62,357 nt of DNA from Acidimicrobiia bacterium (GCA_036396655.1 DASWKK010000095.1:1-62357), one strand, 5' to 3'; counted from the first letter of the stretch, positions 8,112 through 42,915 are shown. Program-made: numbers and translations. The notes: generated from the letters alone by a model not told the origin.

Positions 8112-9323
8112 ATGGAGCGATTCCTGACCGGAGTCAATTACTGGCCGAGGCGAAAGGCCATGTATTGGTGGGCGGACTTCGACGCGTCGGAGGTGTCCGA
8201 CGAGTTCGACCTCATCGCGTCGATCGGGATGGACGTCGCACGTATCTTCCTGCTCTGGGACGATTGGCAGCCGAGCGCCAACACCGTCTCATCTGAGCGT
8301 CTCCGCGATCTAGGAGTGGTCTGCGATCTGGCCGCGTCCAAAGGGCTCGGTCTGGATGTGACCTTCTTCACCGGGCACATGAGCGGCCCCAACTGGGCGC
8401 CCCGCTGGCTGCTCGACGGCGACGCTCCCTGGCCTTCGAGATATGTGCGACAGGTCCTGAGCGAGGGCAAGGTGGTCGGCGATTCCTACCGGAACATGTT
8501 CCACGACCCCGATGCGATAGCAGCCGAGCGTCTCCTCCTCGACACGGTGGTCACCGAGTATCGCGATCACGACGGGATATGGATGTGGAACCTGGGCAAT
8601 GAGCCCGACCTGTTCGCCTGGCCCAACACCGCCTCCGATGGCACCGGGTGGGTGTCGCAGATGACAGGGCTGATCAAGGAGCTCGACCCGGTTCATCCGG
8701 TGACCACCGGGCTCCACACCGCCAACCTGTTCGAGGACAACGGCTTTCGGGTCAACGAGGTGTTCGGCGTCTCCGACGTGGCGGTCATGCACGGCTACCC
8801 GATGTACATCCCCTGGGCGAGGAACAACCTCGACCCCGACTTCGTCCCCTACCTCTGTGCCCTGGTCACCGCCCTCAGCGGAAAACCATGTCTGGCCGAG
8901 GAGTGGGGTGGCTGCACTTCTCCCGACACCGCCGAGTCGGTGGTGTGGAGCTGGAACGCCTATGGCGCCGACCGCGACCAGTTCATGGCCGGCGAGCAAG
9001 CCCTCGCCGACTACATCGCGGAGGTATTGCCCAAACTGGTCGAGGTCGGGTCGACCGGGTCGTTTCTGTGGTGCTTCGCCGATTACTCGCCCGAGCTATG
9101 GGACCGTCCCCCATGCGACCCGGGTGGCGCCAAGCACGAACGTCATTTCGGGCTGGTGCGACCCGACGGGTCCCTCAAGCCTCACGCAGACGTGATCCAG
9201 AAGTTCGTTGCGACCGGGCCGACGGTGCAAGCACCGACGAGAAAGGTCACCCTCGATGTCACCCCCGAGGAGTACTACCTCGACCCGGCCGGCCACGCCC
9301 GAAGGCTCTACCAGGACTTCTGA
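8112..9323 (+). CDS. Clan-A glycoside hydrolase (GH5-like), cytoplasmic, possibly beta-mannosidase/glucosidase
   Basis: GVNYWP start, WNLGNEP acid/base, AEEWG nucleophile, WCFADY...ERHFGL. No signal peptide. Confidence 0.85.
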   Translation: MERFLTGVNYWPRRKAMYWWADFDASEVSDEFDLIASIGMDVARIFLLWDDWQPSANTVSSERLRDLGVVCDLAASKGLGLDVTFFTGHMSGPNWAPRWLLDGDAPWPSRYVRQVLSEGKVVGDSYRNMFHDPDAIAAERLLLDTVVTEYRDHDGIWMWNLGNEPDLFAWPNTASDGTGWVSQMTGLIKELDPVHPVTTGLHTANLFEDNGFRVNEVFGVSDVAVMHGYPMYIPWARNNLDPDFVPYLCALVTALSGKPCLAEEWGGCTSPDTAESVVWSWNAYGADRDQFMAGEQALADYIAEVLPKLVEVGSTGSFLWCFADYSPELWDRPPCDPGGAKHERHFGLVRPDGSLKPHADVIQKFVATGPTVQAPTRKVTLDVTPEEYYLDPAGHARRLYQDF

Positions 9324-9565
9324 TGGCTCCCAGGTCGATGATGCCCGGTCTGACCCTCATCCTTCTGATTTCCGCCTGCACCGGTGAGAGCAACACGACT
9401 TCGCCACCACTCTCCACCACTACGACAGTCTCACTGTCGTCCACCTTTCCTCCGGATCTACCCGGGATTCATCTCGGTCGAGCCCACCGCCGTCGGTCGT
9501 TGATCGTGGTCCTGGATGGTGATAGCACCGAACTGTGGACGAGGAGGATCGACAACAGCCGGTGA
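9323..9565 (+). pseudogene. Short or truncated lipoprotein (80 aa)
   Basis: TGATG overlap with the GH5 stop, LLISAC lipobox, Thr/Ser linker, then an early stop with no recognisable domain. Confidence 0.35.
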
Positions 9566-9622
9566 CTCTTGGATCGGAGGTCGAGGAGGCTGGCCTGACC
9601 CGGACACCGCGGTCTCGAACCA

Positions 9623-10912
9623 CTACGAAAAACTGCCGCGCGTGCTCTCGGGTGCATCTGCTTCCGACGGTGGGGCGGATCTGGCGAAGTACATGTCTAT
9701 CTCGCCCTTGCCTTTGACTTCGACCTTTCCCCGATGCTCGAACTGGAATGCAGGGTGATGCTCCACGAGGGCGAACGTGGTTCCGCTCACGTTGACTTCA
9801 CCGACCGACCCAGCAGCCTCCAACCGGGAGGCGGTGTTGACTGTGTCACCCCACACGTCGTACTGGAACTTCGTATCTCCGACCACACCGGCCACGACGG
9901 GCCCGGAATGGACTCCGATCCGCATCTCGAATGCTGGCTTTCCTGCTATCCGGTTGGCGGTGACGTGGCGGTCCATGAACTGCTGCATCTGCAGAGCGGC
10001 TTGGAGTGCGTTCGAAGGCGACGACCCTACGCCCAGGGCCAAGCCGGAAACAGCCATATATGCGTCACCGATGGTCTTGATCTTTTCCAGACCGTGGTCC
10101 CGCATGATGGAGTCGAAGGCGTAGAAGCAGGTGTTCAACTCCTCAACGAGGGTGGTGGGGGTCATATCCGAGCTGATCTCGGTGAAGTTCTGGAAATCGC
10201 TGAACAGGACGGTCACCTCGTCGAACTCCCGGGCTTGGGCGTGACCGGTGGCTTTCAGCTCTTCTGCCACGTCTTCGGGGAGGATGTTGAGAAGCAAGGC
10301 CTGAGTCTTCTCCCTCTCCTCCTCGACTTGGCGGAGCGCAGTCCGCGCAATGGCGTCGAAGTCGCGAACTATTAGGAAGATGATGACCACCAGGCCGAGG
10401 AACGCGGCGAGCTTGAAAGCAGCGTCGACGTCGGCATCGAAAGTCAAAGGGAAGTCCACACCGGCCAGCTCCGCGATGCCCAGGATCAAGACTTCGGCGA
10501 CGACCACGAGAAACCAGATCAGACCCGCTCTGGCCCCGATCAGCATGAGACCCAGCATCGGGATGATGGCGACGTAGGGGCTGGTGATCGACGTGCTCAA
10601 TCCTCCGCTCGTGGTGGTGATCAGGACGGTGTCGAGAAAGATGATCCCGATGTAGACGTTGGCGACCACTGTCCGGCTCATCCCCCTCTTGACGAGGAAA
10701 GGCAACGCTGCCATCGCGAGCCCACTCGCCGCCATCGCGTAGACGCCGACCGGGAAGCCCACCACAACCGAGACCCCGCAGTAGATGAGGGCGAGTGCGC
10801 CGGTCAGGAAACAGACGAAGACCAGGTTGCGGTGCTTCTTGAGCTCGTCGGTCGACGGGGCACTTCCCGGCGGGAGGAAGCGGTCCTCCCAGCCCTCAAA
10901 CCGTGGCTGCAT
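9623..10912 (-). CDS. Class III adenylate cyclase with about 6 N-terminal TM helices
   Basis: VLFSDFQNFT, EKIKTIGDAYM, RIGVHSGPVVAGVVG, YDVWGDTVNTASRLE. Lys/Asp pair indicates ATP specificity. Confidence 0.93.
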   Translation of the reverse strand: MQPRFEGWEDRFLPPGSAPSTDELKKHRNLVFVCFLTGALALIYCGVSVVVGFPVGVYAMAASGLAMAALPFLVKRGMSRTVVANVYIGIIFLDTVLITTTSGGLSTSITSPYVAIIPMLGLMLIGARAGLIWFLVVVAEVLILGIAELAGVDFPLTFDADVDAAFKLAAFLGLVVIIFLIVRDFDAIARTALRQVEEEREKTQALLLNILPEDVAEELKATGHAQAREFDEVTVLFSDFQNFTEISSDMTPTTLVEELNTCFYAFDSIMRDHGLEKIKTIGDAYMAVSGLALGVGSSPSNALQAALQMQQFMDRHVTANRIAGKPAFEMRIGVHSGPVVAGVVGDTKFQYDVWGDTVNTASRLEAAGSVGEVNVSGTTFALVEHHPAFQFEHRGKVEVKGKGEIDMYFARSAPPSEADAPESTRGSFS

Positions 10913-23690: not shown

Positions 23691-24326
23691 TCACTTGTTG
23701 TGACCCGGAGCGGAACCTGAGTTGCCGGGCCCATCGGTGTGGTCGGGCTTGCCGGCAGGGTCGTGCTTACCCGCCGTGTCCGGCTTACCGGCACTTTCGG
23801 GCTTGCCGCTGATGTCGTCGGGAGAGCTCTTGTCGGGATTCAGGCAGCGAGTCTCGACCGTGGTGAGATCCACGACCCCCGGCGCCGTCAAATCGGCGTC
23901 CGAAGTGTCACCAGGCTTGACCTGTTGGTCGTCCTTGCCGAGATCGGACTGAGCGAGATGACGGACCACGCACCCTCGACCCTGGCCCTGCCAGAGGCTG
24001 TTGAAGAGTTTCATGAACATCCCGTGATTCACCTGCCCATTGGGGCCGGAGACCTCGAGACCACTCGTCCCACACTCGGTGTCTGAAGACTCGACACCAG
24101 GGGTCCCTTCCACCAACGGACAGTCGAGGCTGCCATCCAGCGCGGAAAGGTTGAATACGAACATGCGATTGATCAGGTCGTAACCGAAGCTGAACAAGGT
24201 GTCGGCCACCTGACCGAGCTCGACGATCTCATCGGCCTCGTCGTCCGCCGCCCAAGCCACACCCGAGCCGGCCAAGAGCCCAATGACGATGAAAGTGGCA
24301 AAGGCCGATCTCTTCAGTTTTGGCAT
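23691..24326 (-). CDS. Hypothetical secreted protein with C-terminal GKP(D/E) repeats
   Basis: Signal peptide ending AWA, NHGMF core, tail GKPESAGKPDTAGKHDPAGKPDH. GGAG SD before ATG 24326. Confidence 0.7.
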   Translation of the reverse strand: MPKLKRSAFATFIVIGLLAGSGVAWAADDEADEIVELGQVADTLFSFGYDLINRMFVFNLSALDGSLDCPLVEGTPGVESSDTECGTSGLEVSGPNGQVNHGMFMKLFNSLWQGQGRGCVVRHLAQSDLGKDDQQVKPGDTSDADLTAPGVVDLTTVETRCLNPDKSSPDDISGKPESAGKPDTAGKHDPAGKPDHTDGPGNSGSAPGHNK

Positions 24327-24412
24327 GAGTCGCTCCGGTTTGGTCCGAGTTGTCACCTCCTGTAATCGTCATAGCGGTGATTTGGGTTACGGGCGAAGAC
24401 GTCTGATCTTGT

Positions 24413-24456
24413 TCCCACCTGGTTCCCAGCAAACTCACAGGAAGTGGGTCTAGTTT
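24413..24456 (+). promoter_or_regulatory. OmpR-family direct-repeat boxes plus -10 (autoregulatory promoter)
   Basis: TCCCACC 24413, TCCCAGC 24424, TCACAGG 24435 (11-nt period). TAGTTT follows 9 nt later, 7 nt before ATG. Confidence 0.65.
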
Positions 24457-24463
24457 GACCTCG

Positions 24464-25174
24464 ATGCCCACCACCATCGACCGCGATGCGACAGTCCTGG
24501 TCGTCGACGATGAAGAGGCCCTCACCGATCTGGTCTCCAGCGCACTTCGATTTGCCGGCTATGCGGTCAGGACCGCGGCCGATGGGTTCGAGGCACTGCG
24601 CAGCATCAAGGCGGACCCACCCGACCTGATTGTCCTCGACGTCAACATGCCCGAGCTCGACGGGTTCGAGGTGTGCCGGAGGATCAGGCGTGACGGGATT
24701 CAGGTACCGGTGATCTTCCTAACCGCTCGGGATGGCATCGACGACCTCAGGGTCGGGTTCCGCCAGGGCGGTGACGATTACTTGACGAAGCCTTTCAGTC
24801 TCGAAGAGCTTGGCCTGCGCATCGAAGCCCTGCTTCGTCGTTCCGGTGGCATGACCGACTCCCGCCCGAGAATTGCGGTCGGCGAGGTGGTCGTCGATGA
24901 AGACGCGCATCAGGTGTTCCACGGCGACGCCGAAGTTCAGCTCTCCCCGACCGAGTTCCGTCTCCTTCGCTTCCTCCTCCTCAACCGGGGACGGGTCATG
25001 TCCAAGACACAAATCGTCGACCACGTCTGGGAGTACGACTTCGACGGCAATTACGGCATCGTCGAGACCTACGTCTCCTACTTGCGAAAGAAGCTGGGCG
25101 ACTCCGACGGGAGCCTGATCCAGACGGTGCGCGGGGTGGGATACGTGGTTCGCCCCGCCCGGGACGAGGAATGA
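24464..25174 (+). CDS. OmpR/PhoP-family response regulator
   Basis: LVVDDE, IVLDVNMP, GGDDYLTKPF, LSPTEFRLL, IQTVRGVGY. Confidence 0.97.
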   Translation: MPTTIDRDATVLVVDDEEALTDLVSSALRFAGYAVRTAADGFEALRSIKADPPDLIVLDVNMPELDGFEVCRRIRRDGIQVPVIFLTARDGIDDLRVGFRQGGDDYLTKPFSLEELGLRIEALLRRSGGMTDSRPRIAVGEVVVDEDAHQVFHGDAEVQLSPTEFRLLRFLLLNRGRVMSKTQIVDHVWEYDFDGNYGIVETYVSYLRKKLGDSDGSLIQTVRGVGYVVRPARDEE

Positions 25175-26586
25175 GTCTCCGCACCAGACTCGTCATCTCG
25201 TTCACGGTCCTCTTGCTGGTGGTGGTGGTAACGGTCGGCTTTGTTGCCTCCCGCTCCATCGAAGGCATCCTCATCGCACAGATCGATCGACTCCTGGTCG
25301 GTTTCGTCGAGCGGGGCCCGTTCCCCGGCCAGCTCATCCCCGGGCCCGACGAAGTCGAGCGAGGCCCGTTCCATCGCGACGTCGCCGAGGTGGTTCTCAA
25401 CAAAGACGGCGTGGAGATCTTCGCCGCCCCCTCCGGGTTCGCCGACGACCCCGACCCGTTGCCCGACGTCTCCGAGCTCCCCGACCGCACCGAGCCGGTG
25501 TTCCTCGCCGCGGTCGACAACAGCCTTCGGTACCGGGCCGTTGTCATCCGTTTTCCCGACGGCTTCGAGCTACCCGGCGGAGTGAGCATCGCCGAGGGCA
25601 TCACCGTGGTCCGGGCCGCCCCCCTGACCGACGTCGAAGCGGCGGGCAATCGGCTGTTCCAGAGCGTTGCCCTCGCAGGCGCCGGGGTGCTGTTCCTCGG
25701 CGGGGCCGGCACCTGGTGGACGGTGAAACGCTCGATGCGCCCCGTCGAGCAGATGGTGGAGACGGCCGAGGCAATCGCGTCGGGCGATCTATCCCGTCGT
25801 GTCCCTGAGTTGGAGCCGGGAACCGAGCTCGGCAGGCTGGGCGGCTCCCTCAACGTGATGCTGACCCACATCGAGGAAGCGGTCGAGGTGGAGATGGAGG
25901 CCCAAGACCGGCTGCGCCGCTTCGTCGCCGATGCATCCCACGAGCTGCGAACCCCGGTTACCGCCATCTCCGGCTACGCCGAGCTGCGTCGGAGAGGGGG
26001 GCTGACCACCCCCGAGGAGGAGGAAAAGGCCTGGTCCCGTATCGAAAGCGAAGGACGGCGGATGGGGTCCTTGGTCGAGGATCTGCTCACCCTGACCCGA
26101 CTCGGGCAGGGCAAACCGCTCGACCTCGCCCAGGTCGACCTGGCCCGAGTCGCCCGCAACGCCGCCCAGGACCATCAAGTGATCGACCCGGAACGGCCGA
26201 TCACGGTCATCGCGACCGACGCCCTGGTCATCGAGGCCGACGAGGAGCGGCTCCACCAGGTGATCAGCAACCTCTTGAGCAACGTCCGGGTCCACACCCC
26301 ACCGTGGACCAAGGTGGAGATCGCCCTGGTCGAGCGGAACGACGACATCGTGATCGTGGTCGCCGACGATGGGATCGGCTTTCCCGAAGCCGATCTGGAC
26401 CATGTCTTCGACCGCTTTTACCGGGCAGACCCCTCCCGCTCTCGTCGGTCTGGGGGCAGCGGACTGGGCCTCGCCATCGTCGCCGCGATCGTGATCGCAC
26501 ACGGGGGCACGGTCGAGGCTTCCAACGTCGAAGGGGGCGGGGCCAAGATCGGCATCACCCTCCCCCGCCGGTCTCATCTCGACTGA
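25171..26586 (+). CDS. HAMP sensor histidine kinase
   Basis: Two TM, HAMP, ADASHELRTP, NLLSNV, DDGIGF, GSGLGLAIV. ATGA overlap with the RR. Confidence 0.96.
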   Translation: MSLRTRLVISFTVLLLVVVVTVGFVASRSIEGILIAQIDRLLVGFVERGPFPGQLIPGPDEVERGPFHRDVAEVVLNKDGVEIFAAPSGFADDPDPLPDVSELPDRTEPVFLAAVDNSLRYRAVVIRFPDGFELPGGVSIAEGITVVRAAPLTDVEAAGNRLFQSVALAGAGVLFLGGAGTWWTVKRSMRPVEQMVETAEAIASGDLSRRVPELEPGTELGRLGGSLNVMLTHIEEAVEVEMEAQDRLRRFVADASHELRTPVTAISGYAELRRRGGLTTPEEEEKAWSRIESEGRRMGSLVEDLLTLTRLGQGKPLDLAQVDLARVARNAAQDHQVIDPERPITVIATDALVIEADEERLHQVISNLLSNVRVHTPPWTKVEIALVERNDDIVIVVADDGIGFPEADLDHVFDRFYRADPSRSRRSGGSGLGLAIVAAIVIAHGGTVEASNVEGGGAKIGITLPRRSHLD

Positions 26587-26595
26587 TCCTTCGAC

Positions 26596-26650
26596 TCCCA
26601 CCCAATTCGACGTCGGCGCTCAGGATGGTCCCAGCCTTCGCCCGCACGAT
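26596..26650 (+). promoter_or_regulatory. Direct-repeat box array 2 plus -10
   Basis: TCCCACC 26596, TCGACGT 26607, GCTCAGG 26618, TCCCAGC 26629. CACGAT follows 9 nt later. Confidence 0.55.
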
Positions 26651-26683
26651 GGGCAGCGGCATCCCCAAACGAAAGGAGCTGAG

Positions 26684-26956
26684 ATGCCGGCTCAAACCAA
26701 CAAGGTGACACGGCTCACCGGAGCCGTCGCCCTGGTGGGCGCTCTGGGACTGGGTGCGGTCCTCGGGATCCCCAGTGTCGGTCTGGCCCAGACCGAGGAC
26801 ACCACGACCACTGTGGTCGAGGAGAGCTCGGAGACAACCGGGAGCACGGTCGCAGACGAGACCACGGAGACCGAGAAGTCGGGGGCGGAACGTCCCGACC
26901 GTGGCGACAGCGATTGTGAGAAGGACGAGGACACCACCTCGTCCTCCAACACCTGA
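26684..26956 (+). CDS. Small secreted acidic Thr/Glu-rich protein
   Basis: AAGGAG SD, signal peptide ending GLA, low-complexity mature part. Confidence 0.65.
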   Translation: MPAQTNKVTRLTGAVALVGALGLGAVLGIPSVGLAQTEDTTTTVVEESSETTGSTVADETTETEKSGAERPDRGDSDCEKDEDTTSSSNT

Positions 26957-26967
26957 CGACGGCCGAT

Positions 26968-26998
26968 TTCGGGTCCCGGGACAAACCCGGGACCCGAA
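26968..26998 (+). terminator. 13-bp hairpin
   Basis: TTCGGGTCCCGGG-ACAAA-CCCGGGACCCGAA just after stop 26956. Confidence 0.7.
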
Positions 26999-27002
26999 GC
27001 GT

Positions 27003-27057
27003 CTTAAGGAAACTCTCAGCTTGTCCCAAGGCCGGTCACAGCCGGCCCGAGGAGCCT
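27003..27057 (+). promoter_or_regulatory. Direct-repeat box array 3 plus -10
   Basis: CTTAAGG 27003, TCTCAGC 27014, CCCAAGG 27025, TCACAGC 27036. GAGCCT follows 9 nt later. Confidence 0.6.
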
Positions 27058-27097
27058 GGTACCGCCCGTAGCCATCCAGACAGGAGATTTAGAACCG

Positions 27098-27718
27098 ATG
27101 AGATCCAGAGCATTGCTGGCGTTGGCCGTGGTCCTCGCCGCATGCGGCGGCGGGGCCGACGACGACGGAGATGGGGTGGCCAGCCTCGACCAGTCGTCCA
27201 GTACCACCATCAGCGAAGAGATCGAATCCGATCCTGAAGCCGCCACCATCGCCTTCACCGAATGTATGCGAGAGAACGGTATCGAGATGGAGGACCCCAC
27301 CGTCGACGCCGACGGCAACGTGATCCCAGGTCGTCCTACCGACCTCCCCGAGCCCGACGACAACGGACAGGTTCGCGCCGGGAACGGCGAGCTGGGTGAG
27401 GATCTGAGACCCGCCTTTGATGAGTGCGGCGACTTGCTCGATGGAACCGCTTTCGGATTCACTCCCCAGGACCTGACCGAGCTCGAGGACCAACTCCTCG
27501 AACTGGCCGAGTGTCTCCGTGATCAGGGTCTTGATGTCGCCGATCCCGACCTGTCCGATCTGGGCGGTGGTCCCCAGGAGGGAGGGCCGTTCGGGATCGA
27601 CTTCCAGGACCCCGAGGTCCAGGCGGCGATGGACCAGTGCGAGGAGTTCGTACCAAACTTTGCGGGCGAAGGGCCCGGCTCCGGGTTCGGCGCCCCTGGT
27701 GACGGTGACGACCAGTGA
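27098..27718 (+). CDS. Lipoprotein with two Cys-containing internal repeats
   Basis: LAAC lipobox. FTECMRENG..EDP / LAECLRDQG..ADP and AFDEC / AMDQC repeats. Confidence 0.85.
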   Translation: MRSRALLALAVVLAACGGGADDDGDGVASLDQSSSTTISEEIESDPEAATIAFTECMRENGIEMEDPTVDADGNVIPGRPTDLPEPDDNGQVRAGNGELGEDLRPAFDECGDLLDGTAFGFTPQDLTELEDQLLELAECLRDQGLDVADPDLSDLGGGPQEGGPFGIDFQDPEVQAAMDQCEEFVPNFAGEGPGSGFGAPGDGDDQ

Positions 27719-28869
27719 GTCTCGAAGAGAAAGACACACAACCCATGGCCGCACCCGAAACCCGTGAGACGGGCAGTGCGGAGACGTTGAAGGGGGTGTC
27801 GCCCGAGCTGGAGCCGCGACGACGTCGCTGGTGGATCCCGACCCTGATCCTGATCCTGCTCGCCGGTCCCGCCACCTGGTGGTATCTGACGCAATCAGGT
27901 GAGCAGGAAGCCGCCGATACCACCGTCGGGGTCGAACTCGATTTCGCCGAGGTGGTCCTGACCGATCTGGTCGAGAACTCCGAATACGAGGGGACATTGG
28001 GCCGACTCGCCGGCGATCCGGTGAGCGTGCGTGCCGAAGGCACCGTGACCGCATTGCCCGAAGCGGGCACCACGCTGGAACAGGGCGACGTGGTCGCCTG
28101 GGTTGACAACCAGCCCGTTGTCCTCCTCTATGGGGAGCTGCCGATGTGGCGGGAGATGAGAGACGACACCGAGGGGCCCGATGTCCTCCAGCTGGAGACG
28201 GCGCTCACCGCGCTCGGTTACAACGAATCGGAGTCGTTGATGAACGTCGACGAGACCTTCACCGGCGCCACCGCGTCGGTGGTAGAGACATGGCAGGAGG
28301 CGATTGGCGGCGAGGGGGACGGCGTGGTCGGCATCGGCGACGTCGTCTTCGTCTCCGGCCCGGTGACGGTCGACGCCCTGCAGGTGGCGGTCGGCGACCA
28401 GATCGGGGGCAACACCCCGGTCTTCACCACCGCCGGCGAGGAACTCGAGGTCAGCTTCGGCCTCCCCACCTTTGAGCAGGACAACGTGGACGTGGGCGAT
28501 ACGGTGGAGATCACTCTCCCCGACCTGAGCACCGCCACCGGGGCGGTCACCGAGATCGCCACGGTCGCCACCACCCCCGAGGGCGGCGGCGATGTCACCT
28601 TCGAGACGATCGTCGAGCTCGACGACCCTTCCCTTGCCGCTGGCGTCGACGAGGCCCCGGTGATGGTGGCTGTGATCACCGACCGGGCCGATCAGGTGAC
28701 CGCGGTCCCAGTGGAGGCCCTGATCGCCCTGGCCGAGGGTGGGTATGCGGTGGAGGTCGAGGACGGGTCGGGGACAAGGCTGGTCGCCGTCGACCCCGGG
28801 TTCTATGCCGACGGGCTGGTCGAGGTGAACGGGGATGTCGCTCTCGGTGACCGGGTCGTGGTCCCGTGA
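27715..28869 (+). CDS. Membrane-fusion/adaptor-like protein with peptidoglycan-binding domain
   Basis: N-terminal [18 protein letters not shown]...TWQ PG-binding motif, VPVEAL...G adaptor C-terminus. Confidence 0.85.
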
Positions 28870-29564
28870 GCGGCGTGGTGCTCAATCTCGAAGGGGTGCG
28901 GAAGGCCTACCCGGGCACACCCCCTGTGGTCGCGCTCGACGGGGTCGGCTTCAAGATCGAAGCGGGTGAGCTGGTCGGCGTAGTCGGCCCGTCCGGGTCG
29001 GGGAAGTCGACTCTGCTCCACATCATGGGGACATTGGACCGGGCCAGCTCGGGAAGGGTGGAAGTGGTCGGACACGACGTGTCCGCCCTCCCCGATCGGA
29101 AGCTGGCCTCTATCCGCGCCCGGCACATTGGCTTCGTCTTCCAGCAGTTCCATCTCCTCTCCGGCTACACCGCTCTCGACAACGTCGCCGACGGCCTGCT
29201 CTACACCGGGATCCCACTGAGACAGCGTCGGGCGCGGGCACGAGCCGCTTTGGGACGAGTCGGCCTCGATCACCGGCTCGGCCACGTCGCCTCAAAGCTC
29301 TCCGGTGGGGAGCGTCAGCGGGTTGCCATCGCACGTGCGGTAGTGGGAGAGCCCGAGATCCTCCTCGCCGACGAACCGACCGGAAACCTCGATACCCGAA
29401 CGGGGGCCTCCATCGTCGCTCTGCTCGAACATCTCAACCGGACCGGGACCACAGTGGTGGTGATCACCCATGACAGGGAGATCGCCGCGGTGCTGCCTCG
29501 CACGATCGAGATGAGAGACGGCCGAGTGGAAAGCGACCTGCAGGTGGTCGGAGCCCGGTCATGA
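28866..29564 (+). CDS. ABC ATP-binding protein (MacB/LolD-like)
   Basis: [33 protein letters not shown]. Confidence 0.96.
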
Positions 29565-30754
29565 CGGTCACCCTCGAGCCGAGTCGTCTCCATCCCGCCG
29601 ACGTGGGCCGGACCGCATCGGTGGGCCTACGCTCGCGGATGACCCGGGCGGTGCTCTCCGCCCTCGGCATCGCCATCGGCATCGCCTCGATGGTGGCCGT
29701 CCTCGGCCTAAGCGACTCCTCCAAGTCGGAGTTGTTGGCCACCTTGGACCGTCTCGGAACCAACCTGATCACCGTCCAGGCCGGTCAGGGCATCGGGCGC
29801 GGGGCCGGGGAGCTTCCGGAGACGGCGGCGGCGATGATCGCCAGGATCGGGCCGGTCGAGGAGACGGCGGCCGTGGTCAACGTGGATGCCAACGTCTATC
29901 GCACCGACCTGATCCCATCGGACCGAACCAACGGGCTCTCCGTCCAAGCGGTTGACCTCACACTGCTCGACACCCTGGCCGGGACCATGGCCCAAGGGAA
30001 GTGGTTCGACCAGGCCGCCGCGGCGTATCCCACCACGGTGCTCGGTGCGGTGGCGGCGGAACGCCTCGGGGTCAGCGGTCTGCCCGCCCGGGTGTGGCTC
30101 GGTGACCAGTGGTTCACCGTCATCGGCACCCTCGACACCTTCGAGCTCAGCCCCGACCTCGACCGGGCCGCCCTGGTCGGGATGGGCGCCGCCGAGAACC
30201 ACCTCGACTCCGATGTGGTCCCATCGGTGATCCATGTCCGATCTGATCCCGATCACACGGACGATGTGATGGGCGTGCTCGCCGCCACCGCCAACCCGAT
30301 CAACCCCGAGGAGATCGAGGTGAGCCGACCCACCGACGCCCTCGAGGCCAAAGAAGCGGCCAACGACACATTCACCGCATTGTTCCTGGGGCTGGGGGCG
30401 GTGGCCCTGCTAGTGGGCGGGGTGGGTATTGCCAACGTGATGGTGATCTCGGTGTTGGAAAGGAGAGCCGAGATCGGGTTGCGACGTGCATTGGGGGCGA
30501 CCAAGGGCCATGTCGCAGTCCAGTTCCTCGGTGAGGCGCTCCTGCTGTCAGTGATCGGCGGGCTTGCCGGCGTGGCCATCGGATACGGGGTGACCGCCGG
30601 TTGGTCCGCATACAGGGGATGGGATGTGTTGGTGCCCCGGATCGCCCTCCTCGGCGGGTTCGGCGCGGCCCTGATCATCGGGACCCTCGCCGGTTTCTAC
30701 CCAGCGACCAGAGCGGCCCGGATGTCCCCGACCGAGGCCCTCCGCTCGGCCTGA
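29561..30754 (+). CDS. ABC permease (MacB/FtsX type)
   Basis: LGIAIG TM1, large extracytoplasmic loop, [16 protein letters not shown], three C-terminal TM. Confidence 0.95.
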
Positions 30755-30758
30755 CGAT

Positions 30759-30813
30759 TCTCAGTCGGCTCGAACTGCGCTCACAGCCGACTCCCAGCCG
30801 AGAGGGGCAAGGT
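30759..30813 (+). promoter_or_regulatory. Direct-repeat box array 4 plus -10
   Basis: TCTCAGT 30759, TCGAACT 30770, TCACAGC 30781, TCCCAGC 30792. CAAGGT follows 9 nt later. Confidence 0.6.
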
Positions 30814-30847
30814 GGGCACCGCCAACCGAGGCTCTGGCGATCCGCGC

Positions 30848-30895
30848 TTCTGGCGCGGAGATGTCGGCCTATGGGCCGACATCTCCGCGCCAGAA
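30848..30895. repeat. Perfect 22-bp inverted repeat (REP-like hairpin)
   Basis: TTCTGGCGCGGAGATGTCGGCC-TATG-GGCCGACATCTCCGCGCCAGAA. Confidence 0.85.
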
Positions 30896-30957
30896 CGGGT
30901 GTCAGACCGGGTGCCCTCACGCTGCCGACCCAGGCCGTCGCCGGCGGGTCGTCCAGT

Positions 30958-30986
30958 TCTCAGGGTCTCCTCAGGTGACACCCAGG
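30958..30986 (+). promoter_or_regulatory. Direct-repeat box array 5
   Basis: TCTCAGG 30958, CCTCAGG 30969, ACCCAGG 30980, ending 21 nt before ATG 31008. Confidence 0.6.
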
Positions 30987-31007
30987 CAAATCGAGGCGAA
31001 TGGACCG

Positions 31008-31853
31008 ATGATGACGACCATGGAACCGAACACGATCCCAACCACCCCTGATTCTGAGGAGCACCTCGAAGAGCCGAGCAATGAGGAGCTACGCGCCATC
31101 AGCCGTCGCTCCGCCATCAAACTGCTGGGAGGAGCCGGGCTGGCATTGATTGCCGCCTGCGCCGCCGACCCGATAGGTGCAACCACCACCGCGGCTTTGT
31201 CCGGGTCGAGTTCGACCGCCGGCACGGCCGCCACCACCGCTCCCACATTCGGTGGTGATGGCAGCTGTGTCCTGATCCCTGAAGAGACCGAAGGCCCCTA
31301 TCCGCTCGACCTCTCCGGCAGCGAGGAGTTCCTTCGGAGTGACATCGCCGAGGGTCACCCCGGCGTGCCTCTCACCCTCACCCTGTCATTGGTGGATGTC
31401 AACGCCGGATGCGCCCCGATCCCGGGCGCCCGGGTCGACGTCTGGCACTGCGATGCCGACGGGGTCTATTCCGGCTACAGCCAACCCGGGACCGACACCA
31501 CCGCCGAGACCTTCTGCCGGGGAATCCAGGTGAGCGACGACAACGGACAGGTCACTTTCCAGACCATCTACCCGGGGTGGTACCAGGGACGGATCACCCA
31601 CATCCACTTCCAGGTCTTCCTCGAGTCAGGGCTGGCTGCGACCTCTCAAATCGCCTTCCCCGAGGAGATAACCGCCGCTGTCTACGCGGTGGATCCTTAT
31701 GCGGCAAAGGGACCGAACACCTCTGTGACCAGCTTCGCCCAGGACAACGTGTTCAGTGACGGGACCCAGTATCAGATGGCAACCGTCACGGGCGGCGCCG
31801 ACGCCCGGTATGTAGCCACCATGCTGGTCGGCGTGGCCGGTGGGACCAACTGA
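31008..31853 (+). CDS. Tat-exported lipoprotein, intradiol ring-cleavage dioxygenase-like
   Basis: SRRSAIK twin-Arg, LIAAC lipobox, TEGPY, WHCDADGVYS, PGWYQGRITHIHF (Tyr/Tyr/His/His). Confidence 0.88.
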   Translation: MMTTMEPNTIPTTPDSEEHLEEPSNEELRAISRRSAIKLLGGAGLALIAACAADPIGATTTAALSGSSSTAGTAATTAPTFGGDGSCVLIPEETEGPYPLDLSGSEEFLRSDIAEGHPGVPLTLTLSLVDVNAGCAPIPGARVDVWHCDADGVYSGYSQPGTDTTAETFCRGIQVSDDNGQVTFQTIYPGWYQGRITHIHFQVFLESGLAATSQIAFPEEITAAVYAVDPYAAKGPNTSVTSFAQDNVFSDGTQYQMATVTGGADARYVATMLVGVAGGTN

Positions 31854-42282: not shown

Positions 42283-42915
42283 TTAGTTATTGCGATCCAC
42301 TTGCGCAGCATCAGTAGACAATGTCGCCCCACCGCCCACGTCGTCGCCGGAGGCTCGCATCGTCTCCAGGCCATACCAGACGAAGGCGACGATAAACATG
42401 ACGCGCTGGACGAGCCCTGGCGCGGAGATGTTGGCCATGACCAGCGGGATCACCAGCGCGGCCACCAGCGCAACGGCGTCGACGGCTCTCAGCCATCCCG
42501 GGGGGTCGGTCCTCCGGACAGCGACGAGAACGAGACCGACGGTGAAGAAGAGGCCCACCCCAAACGATGCCGTGGAGTGAAGCAAGTCTTCGAATTCGTC
42601 GAAGGTCGAGCCGTCCCAGGGCCCATGCGAGAAGACGGCCGCGGCGATCATCGAGACGCCGAAGCCGGCATGGGCCAGCCGGCCCGTCCCATCCCACCTC
42701 GAACCATGACCGACGGCGAGAGACAGGACGGCGAAGCCAAACAGGACGAACCCGAGCCGAGCCAACCATGCGCCGTCGACCCCCTGGGCCGCCGACTCGC
42801 TGACCGAGTGCCTCACCACCGAGTACGAGTCGGGCATGAGGAAGGGAGCCATTGCCAATGCCGTCATTGCCGCCAGGATGAGAGCGATGACACCCGCTGT
42901 CGACCGGCGACTCAA
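42283..42915 (-). CDS. DUF998-like membrane protein
   Basis: YSVVRHSVSE, EDLLH, GLVQR pattern, about 5 TM. TTG overlaps the rhomboid stop. Confidence 0.75.
   Translation of the reverse strand: MSRRSTAGVIALILAAMTALAMAPFLMPDSYSVVRHSVSESAAQGVDGAWLARLGFVLFGFAVLSLAVGHGSRWDGTGRLAHAGFGVSMIAAAVFSHGPWDGSTFDEFEDLLHSTASFGVGLFFTVGLVLVAVRRTDPPGWLRAVDAVALVAALVIPLVMANISAPGLVQRVMFIVAFVWYGLETMRASGDDVGGGATLSTDAAQVDRNN

Follow-up and report, generated by a model that had tools for sequence, protein, structure and literature searches.

We analysed a stretch of 62,357 nucleotides (nt) from an Acidimicrobiia bacterium (GCA_036396655.1 DASWKK010000095.1:1-62357), hereafter the window, whose plus strand carries a two-component system and neighbouring genes preceded by five arrays of short tandem boxes, the probable operators of the system's regulator. 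The regulator is an OmpR/PhoB-family protein resembling PhoP of Mycobacterium tuberculosis (24464–25174; Pfam Response_reg and Trans_reg_C) and is the sole OmpR-type regulator encoded in the window; neither a second one nor a YceI homologue was found in these 62 kb. The start of a sensor histidine kinase gene (25171–26586; HAMP, HisKA and HATPase_c in Pfam) overlaps the regulator stop. Judged by its relatives, the kinase assigns the window to uncultured Acidimicrobiia. Its sensor domain matches no family, and the proposal of a preliminary description of this DNA that aromatic or metal sensing is linked to export has no support. Behind the kinase gene, the sequence encodes a small, lineage-specific, Thr/Glu-rich protein of 90 amino acids with a signal peptide (26684–26956), for which no family was matched, and then a terminator-like hairpin read from the sequence (CGGGTCCCGGG-ACAAA-CCCGGGACCCG, 26970–26996) that parts this upstream unit from array 3.

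Next comes an operon (27098–30754; Pfam and NCBIfam assignments) that encodes a lipoprotein and an ATP-binding cassette (ABC) module and whose genes have overlapping start and stop codons. It consists of the lipoprotein gene (27098–27718), an adaptor-like protein with a peptidoglycan-binding domain (27715–28869), an ABC ATPase (28866–29564) and a MacB/FtsX-type permease (29561–30754); an exact look-up of the permease protein sequence returned no record. The last gene encodes an intradiol ring-cleavage dioxygenase-like protein with a twin-arginine translocation (Tat) signal (31011–31853; Pfam Dioxygenase_C), with the secreted intradiol dioxygenases 5VG2/6BDJ and 4ILV as its closest solved relatives. 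Three other assemblies carry the same call for its 280-amino-acid product. A longer open reading frame (ORF) from the ATG at 30861 was ruled out, because it would cross both array 5 and the hairpin that precedes that array, and because the other assemblies start at 31011.

Printing the sequence in register confirmed the five arrays that had been placed at 24413, 26596, 27003, 30759 and 30958 on the plus strand with an 11-nt period. Array 1 (24413–24441), upstream of the regulator-kinase operon, comprises TCCCACC (24413), TCCCAGC (24424) and TCACAGG (24435). Array 2 (26596–26635), upstream of the gene for the small secreted protein, has two strong and two weak boxes: TCCCACC (26596), TCGACGT (26607), GCTCAGG (26618) and TCCCAGC (26629). 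The lipoprotein/ABC operon is preceded by array 3 (27003–27042), with CTTAAGG (27003), TCTCAGC (27014), CCCAAGG (27025) and TCACAGC (27036). Array 4 (30759–30798) begins 5 nt past the permease stop and contains TCTCAGT (30759), TCGAACT (30770), TCACAGC (30781) and TCCCAGC (30792). Array 5 (30958–30986), upstream of the dioxygenase gene, is made up of TCTCAGG (30958), CCTCAGG (30969) and ACCCAGG (30980). At the second of these boxes, three assemblies with an identical dioxygenase have the consensus TCTCAGG in place of CCTCAGG, a difference between assemblies that is a natural operator polymorphism.

All 18 boxes of the five arrays keep the exact 11-nt register, as do the boxes of 51 arrays when relatives are included, and the heptamers of the window are separated by 4 base pairs (bp) throughout. 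The boxes are degenerate: 8 of the 18 match TC[ACT]CAG[CG] strictly, and the remainder differ from TCNCAG at one to three of its five defined positions. The resulting consensus is T (13/18), C (17), N, C (14), A (17), G (15) and C/G (15), with C in seven, T in six, A in three and G in two boxes at the variable third position. Each of the arrays lies on the plus strand between genes, array 5 falling within an over-extended ORF call.

The arrays stand at a fixed distance from a hexamer in the position of a -10 element. Array 1 is followed by TAGTTT (24451–24456), 9 nt past its third box and 7 nt before the regulator ATG. Hexamers resembling a -10 element are likewise found 9 nt past array 2 (CACGAT, 26645–26650), array 3 (GAGCCT, 27052–27057, then a leader of ~35 nt with AGGAG) and array 4 (CAAGGT, 30808–30813). 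All four NANNNT hexamers reported earlier at exactly 9 nt from the last box were recovered at these coordinates. The hexamer in the -10 position of array 5, GCGAAT (30996–31001), has no A at position 2. We extended the count to 51 arrays from the window and 19 relatives, which are identified below by L numbers. In 26 of the 51, an NANNNT hexamer (TANNNT in 20) begins 16 nt downstream of the first base of the last box, against 0–4 at offsets 9–24, and several of the misses arise from the automatic rule, which trims weak terminal boxes. In L001-3 the sequence is CAGAGT at the -10 position equivalent to that of array 3 and GGCCTT at the offset equivalent to that of array 5.

The regulator promoters are the most regular, with TANNNT at this 16-nt offset in 13 of 13 extracted orthologues. 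In these promoters the ATG lies within a few nucleotides of the -10 hexamer with no Shine-Dalgarno sequence, from which the regulator mRNAs are predicted to be leaderless. A search of 24200–31200 for promoters found none of canonical sigma-70 type and none with a recognisable -35 element. With the proximal box 9 nt upstream of the -10 hexamer, a bound regulator would sit at the would-be -35 position, and the layout reads as the geometry of activator-dependent promoters, the regulator replacing the -35 contact.

The hexamers themselves appear to differ by promoter class. Target-gene promoters repeatedly use CANGNT (CACGAT, CAAGGT, CATGAT, CATGCT and CAGAGT; 26645 and 30808 in the window, L163 471, L161 51 and L043 5521), and the regulator's own promoters use TA(C/T/G)NNT throughout; the two classes may reflect different basal strengths. 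The dioxygenase gene has two in-frame ATGs, at 31008 and 31011, that lie 6 nt past the array-5 hexamer, so its mRNA may be leaderless in this strain; the dioxygenase gene of L001-3 has a leader of ~40 nt with GGAG. Promoters of CotH genes (L006 8345, L007 8041, L008 5449 and L009 8507, all on the minus strand) have two strong boxes and a weak third one, with the -10-like hexamer (CACGTT or AACCTT in L006-L008) 25 nt past box 2 and 14 nt past box 3 instead of the usual 16, and by their sequence form a different spacing class.

The arrays before the regulator gene, the lipoprotein/ABC operon and the dioxygenase gene recur in relatives. Two or three boxes lie upstream of the regulator in every orthologue examined (at least 18 loci, regulator identity 65–94%), and the intergenic sequence around these boxes has diverged. 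The lipoprotein/ABC operon is syntenic in L001-3, L014-16 and L244. The four-box layout of array 3, with the same pattern of strong and weak boxes, is present in L001-3 (TCTAAG, TCACAG, CCCCAG, TCACAG) and in L244, and L014-16 have arrays at the equivalent position before the operon. Upstream of the dioxygenase gene, L001-3, L081, L161 and L162 have an array of three boxes, and L163 has one that was scored as two boxes (L161 and L163 being metagenome contigs). A box array also precedes the dioxygenase gene of L131, a Thermoleophilia genome. The gene order in L081 and L162 is regulator-kinase-dioxygenase, with the array upstream of the dioxygenase gene and without the ABC module, while in L082 the array precedes a YceI-like gene with the dioxygenase gene directly behind it, as a YceI-dioxygenase operon. 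Judged by these pairings, the dioxygenase link is the best conserved among the unexpected targets.

Other genes preceded by boxes in relatives encode YceI-like, CotH, Cthe_2159, DUF4956(-VTC), NAGPA, ApbE and DUF2271 proteins. All of them carry a signal peptide or a membrane segment save ApbE, for which neither is evident, so the set, as predicted from sequence, is largely one of exported or membrane proteins. Tandem TC(A/T/C)CA(G/C/T) boxes repeating every 11 nt were also seen at loci with ~50% identical regulators in Streptomyces (L019, L022, L026, L035) and Frankia (L021, L024, L028, L032) and in L029 and L033; several of them lie immediately before the regulator gene.

To ask how the arrays stand out from their background, we trained an 11-mer matrix on 13 other genomes, taking the two promoter-proximal boxes in front of the regulator orthologue in each and leaving the window out, and scored tandem dimers across the whole window on both strands (~124,700 positions). 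The top seven matches, at 24424 (27.5), 24413, 30958, 30781, 26618, 30969 and 27003, all lie inside the five arrays. The best dimer of array 1 is the window maximum, at 27.5; arrays 2, 4 and 5 reach 12.3, 12.8 and 14.0, respectively. The eighth-ranked match (53844, minus strand) lies inside a coding sequence of glycogen-branching type and was taken as chance. The preliminary description had named equally frequent matches in random intergenic DNA as a refuting outcome, and this outcome did not occur: in a gap-by-gap scan, the four gaps of the cluster gave 10.3–27.5 and the remaining 29 non-coding gaps at most 4.8. Array 5, being within the over-extended ORF call, sits outside the scanned gaps. 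Dinucleotide shuffles yielded 2.1 matches of at least 10 per whole window, an expectation of ~0.01 in the ~600 nt of intergenic DNA of the cluster. The four arrays found there besides the regulator's own are a very large excess over this expectation. Within the window, moreover, pairs of TC.CAG at 11 or 22 nt on one strand are confined to the cluster.

Among solved structures the regulator scores highest against M. tuberculosis PhoP (238 bits, 50% identity), followed by PrrA (171), RegX3 (137) and MtrA (134), and it remains below the NCBIfam equivalog cut-offs for PhoB (199 vs 296), RpaB (198 vs 330), MtrA (179 vs 300) and CseB (176 vs 350). According to the crystal structure of its complex with DNA, PhoP (Rv0757) recognises the 7-bp motif TCACAGC in direct repeats that are always 4 bp apart, and the bases are contacted by N212, V213, E215, S216, Y217 and Y220 together with R237 of the wing (PMC4832192). 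N212 touches the bases in the middle of the box and bonds through water to the A at its third position. The window protein has the same residue as PhoP at E215, Y217, Y220, S219, R222, K195, W203, F207, R237 and Y241 and conservative replacements at three positions (V213I, S216T and R223K). The preliminary description had likened the arrays to mycobacterial hexamers spaced by 5 nt; the period holds for PhoP, and the published form is the heptamer with 4 bp between boxes, which is the closest known site and in essence the box seen here. MprA was dropped as a model. MprAB is an actinobacterial OmpR-family system that is associated with the cell envelope and positively autoregulated, as the present system would be, but the MprA motif of C. 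glutamicum, TKTTAAGAAM (PMC12113857), is unlike TCNCAG, the window has no HtrA/PepD protease gene beside the two-component genes, and the comparison with the M. tuberculosis MprA box could not be confirmed.

The likeness to M. tuberculosis PhoP extends to the promoters. PhoP too uses arrays of two to three or more boxes with the core TCACAG(C), has boxes on its own promoter and binds sites that overlap the -35 region (PMC4832192, PMC3413638, PMC11825685), and shares most DNA-contact residues with the window protein; the likeness is one of sequence, and orthology is a candidate only. In PhoP activation complexes seen by cryo-electron microscopy, tandem dimers on one to three box pairs displace the interaction between sigma region 4 and the -35 element (PMC11825685), and class II activation has been proposed at lipF and pks2 from PhoP footprinting (PMC3413638). 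The present system differs from PhoP in its host, an uncultured Acidimicrobiia bacterium, and in its targets, which in place of lipid and ESX-1 genes would be an exported dioxygenase, YceI, a MacB-type ABC exporter and CotH/VTC/DUF4956 proteins. It also differs in the third box position, which is free here (T, C or A) where PhoP has A, and in the residue at the N212 position, Gly or Ala in the clade.

The E. coli pho box, CTGTCAT, differs in sequence from the boxes described here. The regulator falls below the PhoB family threshold as given above, and no phosphate genes lie nearby. The arrangement is nevertheless that of the pho box, namely tandem direct repeats of 7 + 4 bp ~10 nt upstream of the -10 element that replace the -35 element. 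PhoB contacts sigma region 4 in class II activation (summarised in PMC3413638 and PMC11825685).

Taken together, we put at roughly 0.8 the probability that the five arrays are operator sites of the adjacent PhoP-like regulator, which would bind them head-to-tail when phosphorylated and activate transcription in the manner of PhoB and M. tuberculosis PhoP. In the proposed mechanism, the partner kinase would phosphorylate the regulator, which would then occupy two to four boxes head-to-tail (7-bp TCNCAG(G/C) plus the 4-bp spacer). The protein on the proximal box, which ends 9 nt before the -10 hexamer, would take the place of the -35 element and recruit RNA polymerase. The outputs would be positive feedback on a leaderless regulator-kinase mRNA, the small secreted protein, the lipoprotein/peptidoglycan-binding adaptor/MacB-type ABC exporter operon, the Tat-exported intradiol dioxygenase and, from array 4, either a short structured RNA or a long leader on the dioxygenase mRNA. 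We infer from the DNA that it is this particular regulator that binds, that activation is the direction of control and where the transcripts start. As a mechanism, the locus is a clear but ordinary instance of what is known from PhoB and M. tuberculosis PhoP.

The targets named beforehand fare differently in this scheme. Predicted control of the regulator gene itself, the ABC module and the dioxygenase gene through 11-bp tandem boxes is well supported by comparison across genomes and by published work. Control of the small secreted protein gene is likely, with weaker support, array 2 having no independent conservation.

Several observations weigh against assigning all five arrays to this regulator as activating sites. 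The residue equivalent to PhoP N212 is Gly in the window protein, and recognition details differ. The -10 hexamers of arrays 3, 4 and 5 (GAGCCT, CAAGGT and GCGAAT) are poor. Arrays 2 and 4 are found only in near-identical strains and have no conservation independent of them. The boxes could also be used by a paralogue of the regulator encoded elsewhere in the genome. Scores of 12–20 arise about once per window in shuffled sequence, so that the case for the weaker arrays lies in their position and clustering and not in their score alone.

The residue at the N212 position bears on how the boxes are read. Across the clade this residue is G, A, S or R. In the more distant L029 and L033, the regulators keep Asn at position 212 and the boxes (TCACAG, GCACAG, CCACAC) have A at position 3, a suggestive correlation in sequence; loss of Asn212 may have co-evolved with the relaxed third box position. 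The residue also differs among the groups with ~50% identity (S, T, N), alongside the preferred box variant.

Arrays 2 and 4 are the recent elements of the locus. Compared with L244, whose regulator is 86% identical, the window has ~380 nt inserted between the end of the kinase gene and the hairpin at 26970–26996, made up of array 2 and the small gene, and a near-identical hairpin, with few base differences, lies behind the kinase gene in L244. Array 2 is found elsewhere only in L241, where its sequence is identical, and is absent from L244 and L001-3. L241 is itself composite: its positions 8236–10780 differ from window 24300–26860 by one mismatch from ~24690, within the regulator gene, to the contig end, while upstream of the equivalent of ~24690 the identity is only 47–87% per 100 nt and the promoter differs. 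Divergently upstream of its regulator lies a DUF4956-VTC operon with its own box array. Either two lineages recombined inside the regulator gene, or the metagenome assembly is a chimera.

Array 4 is followed by a structured non-coding stretch (30815–30915, plus strand; fold -96.3 kcal/mol, z = -7.0) that contains a perfect 22-bp hairpin at 30848–30895 (inverted repeat I1) and is a candidate short RNA, 5' leader or terminator. Rfam returned for the hairpin region only sub-threshold matches to plant microRNA precursors (MIR1432, MIR1151; 28 bits against a gathering threshold of 90). Array 4 and the hairpin structure are present only in the near-identical strains L246-248; metagenome and genome scans found no relatives beyond these that keep the array. 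In L001-3 and L163 both are missing, and only one array separates the permease gene from the dioxygenase gene. Among the near-identical strains, L247 has a compensatory G-C to A-T change in the hairpin stem, and L248 has lost 43 nt between two TCCGCGC repeats and keeps a 7-bp stem. A 19/20 copy of one hairpin arm (CTGGCGCGGAGATGTTGGCC) occurs at 42417–42436, inside a reading frame and without a partner arm (0.07 expected per window by chance); with this single-arm copy at 42417 as the only extra one, the hairpin was dropped as a dispersed repeat. An ORF from the GTG at 30812 behind array 4 was dropped as well, since it begins within the -10 hexamer.

The array-2 and array-4 promoters resemble each other. 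Both have four boxes, a degenerate TCGAnnT second box (TCGACGT, TCGAACT) and the identical last box TCCCAGC, and after their CACGAT and CAAGGT hexamers the sequences GGGCAGCGGCATCC and GGGCACCGCCAACC agree in 11 of 14 bases (26590–26700 and 30755–30870). The shared weak second box, the last box, the CANGNT hexamer and the 11 of 14 bases together suggest that the two promoters arose by duplication.

Three readings of array 4 follow from these features. The array may not be a promoter of its own but may provide accessory upstream sites, or be a by-product of the duplication of the array-2 promoter, with the hairpin as the terminator of the ABC operon. This is a real possibility, although we would not call it probable. 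It fits the absence of array and hairpin from all relatives except near-identical strains and the likeness of the two promoters from the last box through the +1 region, and the hairpin lies 94 nt past the permease stop, with another terminator-like hairpin, equally U-poor, behind the small gene (26970–26996). On the other side, array 4 is laid out as a complete promoter, its four boxes being followed at 9 nt by a hexamer of the CANGNT class seen at other promoters of the regulon, and the compensatory pair in L247 argues for selection on structure, yet it fits a terminator too.

In a second reading, array 4 would be a distal promoter that gives the dioxygenase mRNA a long structured leader. In the third, which we regard as unlikely, it would be a regulator-dependent promoter for a structured non-coding RNA of ~80–100 nt ending at the 22-bp hairpin; this RNA, or the hairpin as an attenuator, would add post-transcriptional control of the Tat dioxygenase, as a recent analogue of Mcr7. 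Mcr7 is reported to be a PhoP-dependent small RNA of M. tuberculosis that modulates Tat secretion (PMC4038636). The likeness, an analogy only, is that of a PhoP-type box promoter followed by non-coding structured sequence and adjoining a gene for a Tat substrate. Unlike Mcr7, the array-4 stretch is known from DNA alone, has no sequence or Rfam similarity and occurs only in near-identical strains. Arrays 4 and 5 had been regarded as one control region of the dioxygenase gene; conservation bears this out for array 5, while array 4 and its hairpin are strain-specific and the transcript is perhaps non-coding.

If the adjacent regulator binds the boxes, it might alternatively repress by occluding RNA polymerase, which we consider improbable. 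In favour of this, the boxes reach into the core promoter, M. tuberculosis PhoP is capable of repression as well (PhoP-TRC, PMC11825685), and negative autoregulation is reported for some OmpR-family members. The promoters, however, have no -35 element to drive regulator-independent transcription, the boxes lie upstream of the -10 hexamer and cover neither it nor +1, and the fixed 9-nt gap fits the activating pho-box geometry (PMC3413638 discussion; PMC11825685).

That the periodic heptamers are a chance or compositional effect of GC-rich intergenic DNA with no regulatory role is effectively refuted: the boxes are short and degenerate, with 10 of 18 departing from the strict pattern, and shuffles yield about one dimer match of at least 12 per window, but the orthologue-trained matrix, the shuffles and the gap-by-gap scan rule this explanation out, the top matches being confined to four adjacent gaps on one strand, with arrays kept at orthologous positions across genomes despite diverged flanking intergenic sequence and the distance to the -10 hexamer fixed.

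Activation by the adjacent PhoP-like regulator would define, from sequence and in testable form, the regulon of a two-component system in uncultured Acidimicrobiia, for which no genetics exists. The PhoP-type box and promoter geometry of M. tuberculosis are conserved in Acidimicrobiia and in one Thermoleophilia example, and similar arrays occur in Streptomyces, Frankia and Actinopolymorpha. Regulators that vary at the N212 position, and with it in the base preferred at the third position of the box, form a natural series in which DNA recognition by this family can be studied. Finally, the arrays would tie to one sensor a widespread and functionally obscure set of exported proteins: the Tat intradiol dioxygenase, YceI-like proteins, the MacB-type exporter with its peptidoglycan-binding adaptor, and the CotH/DUF4956/VTC proteins.

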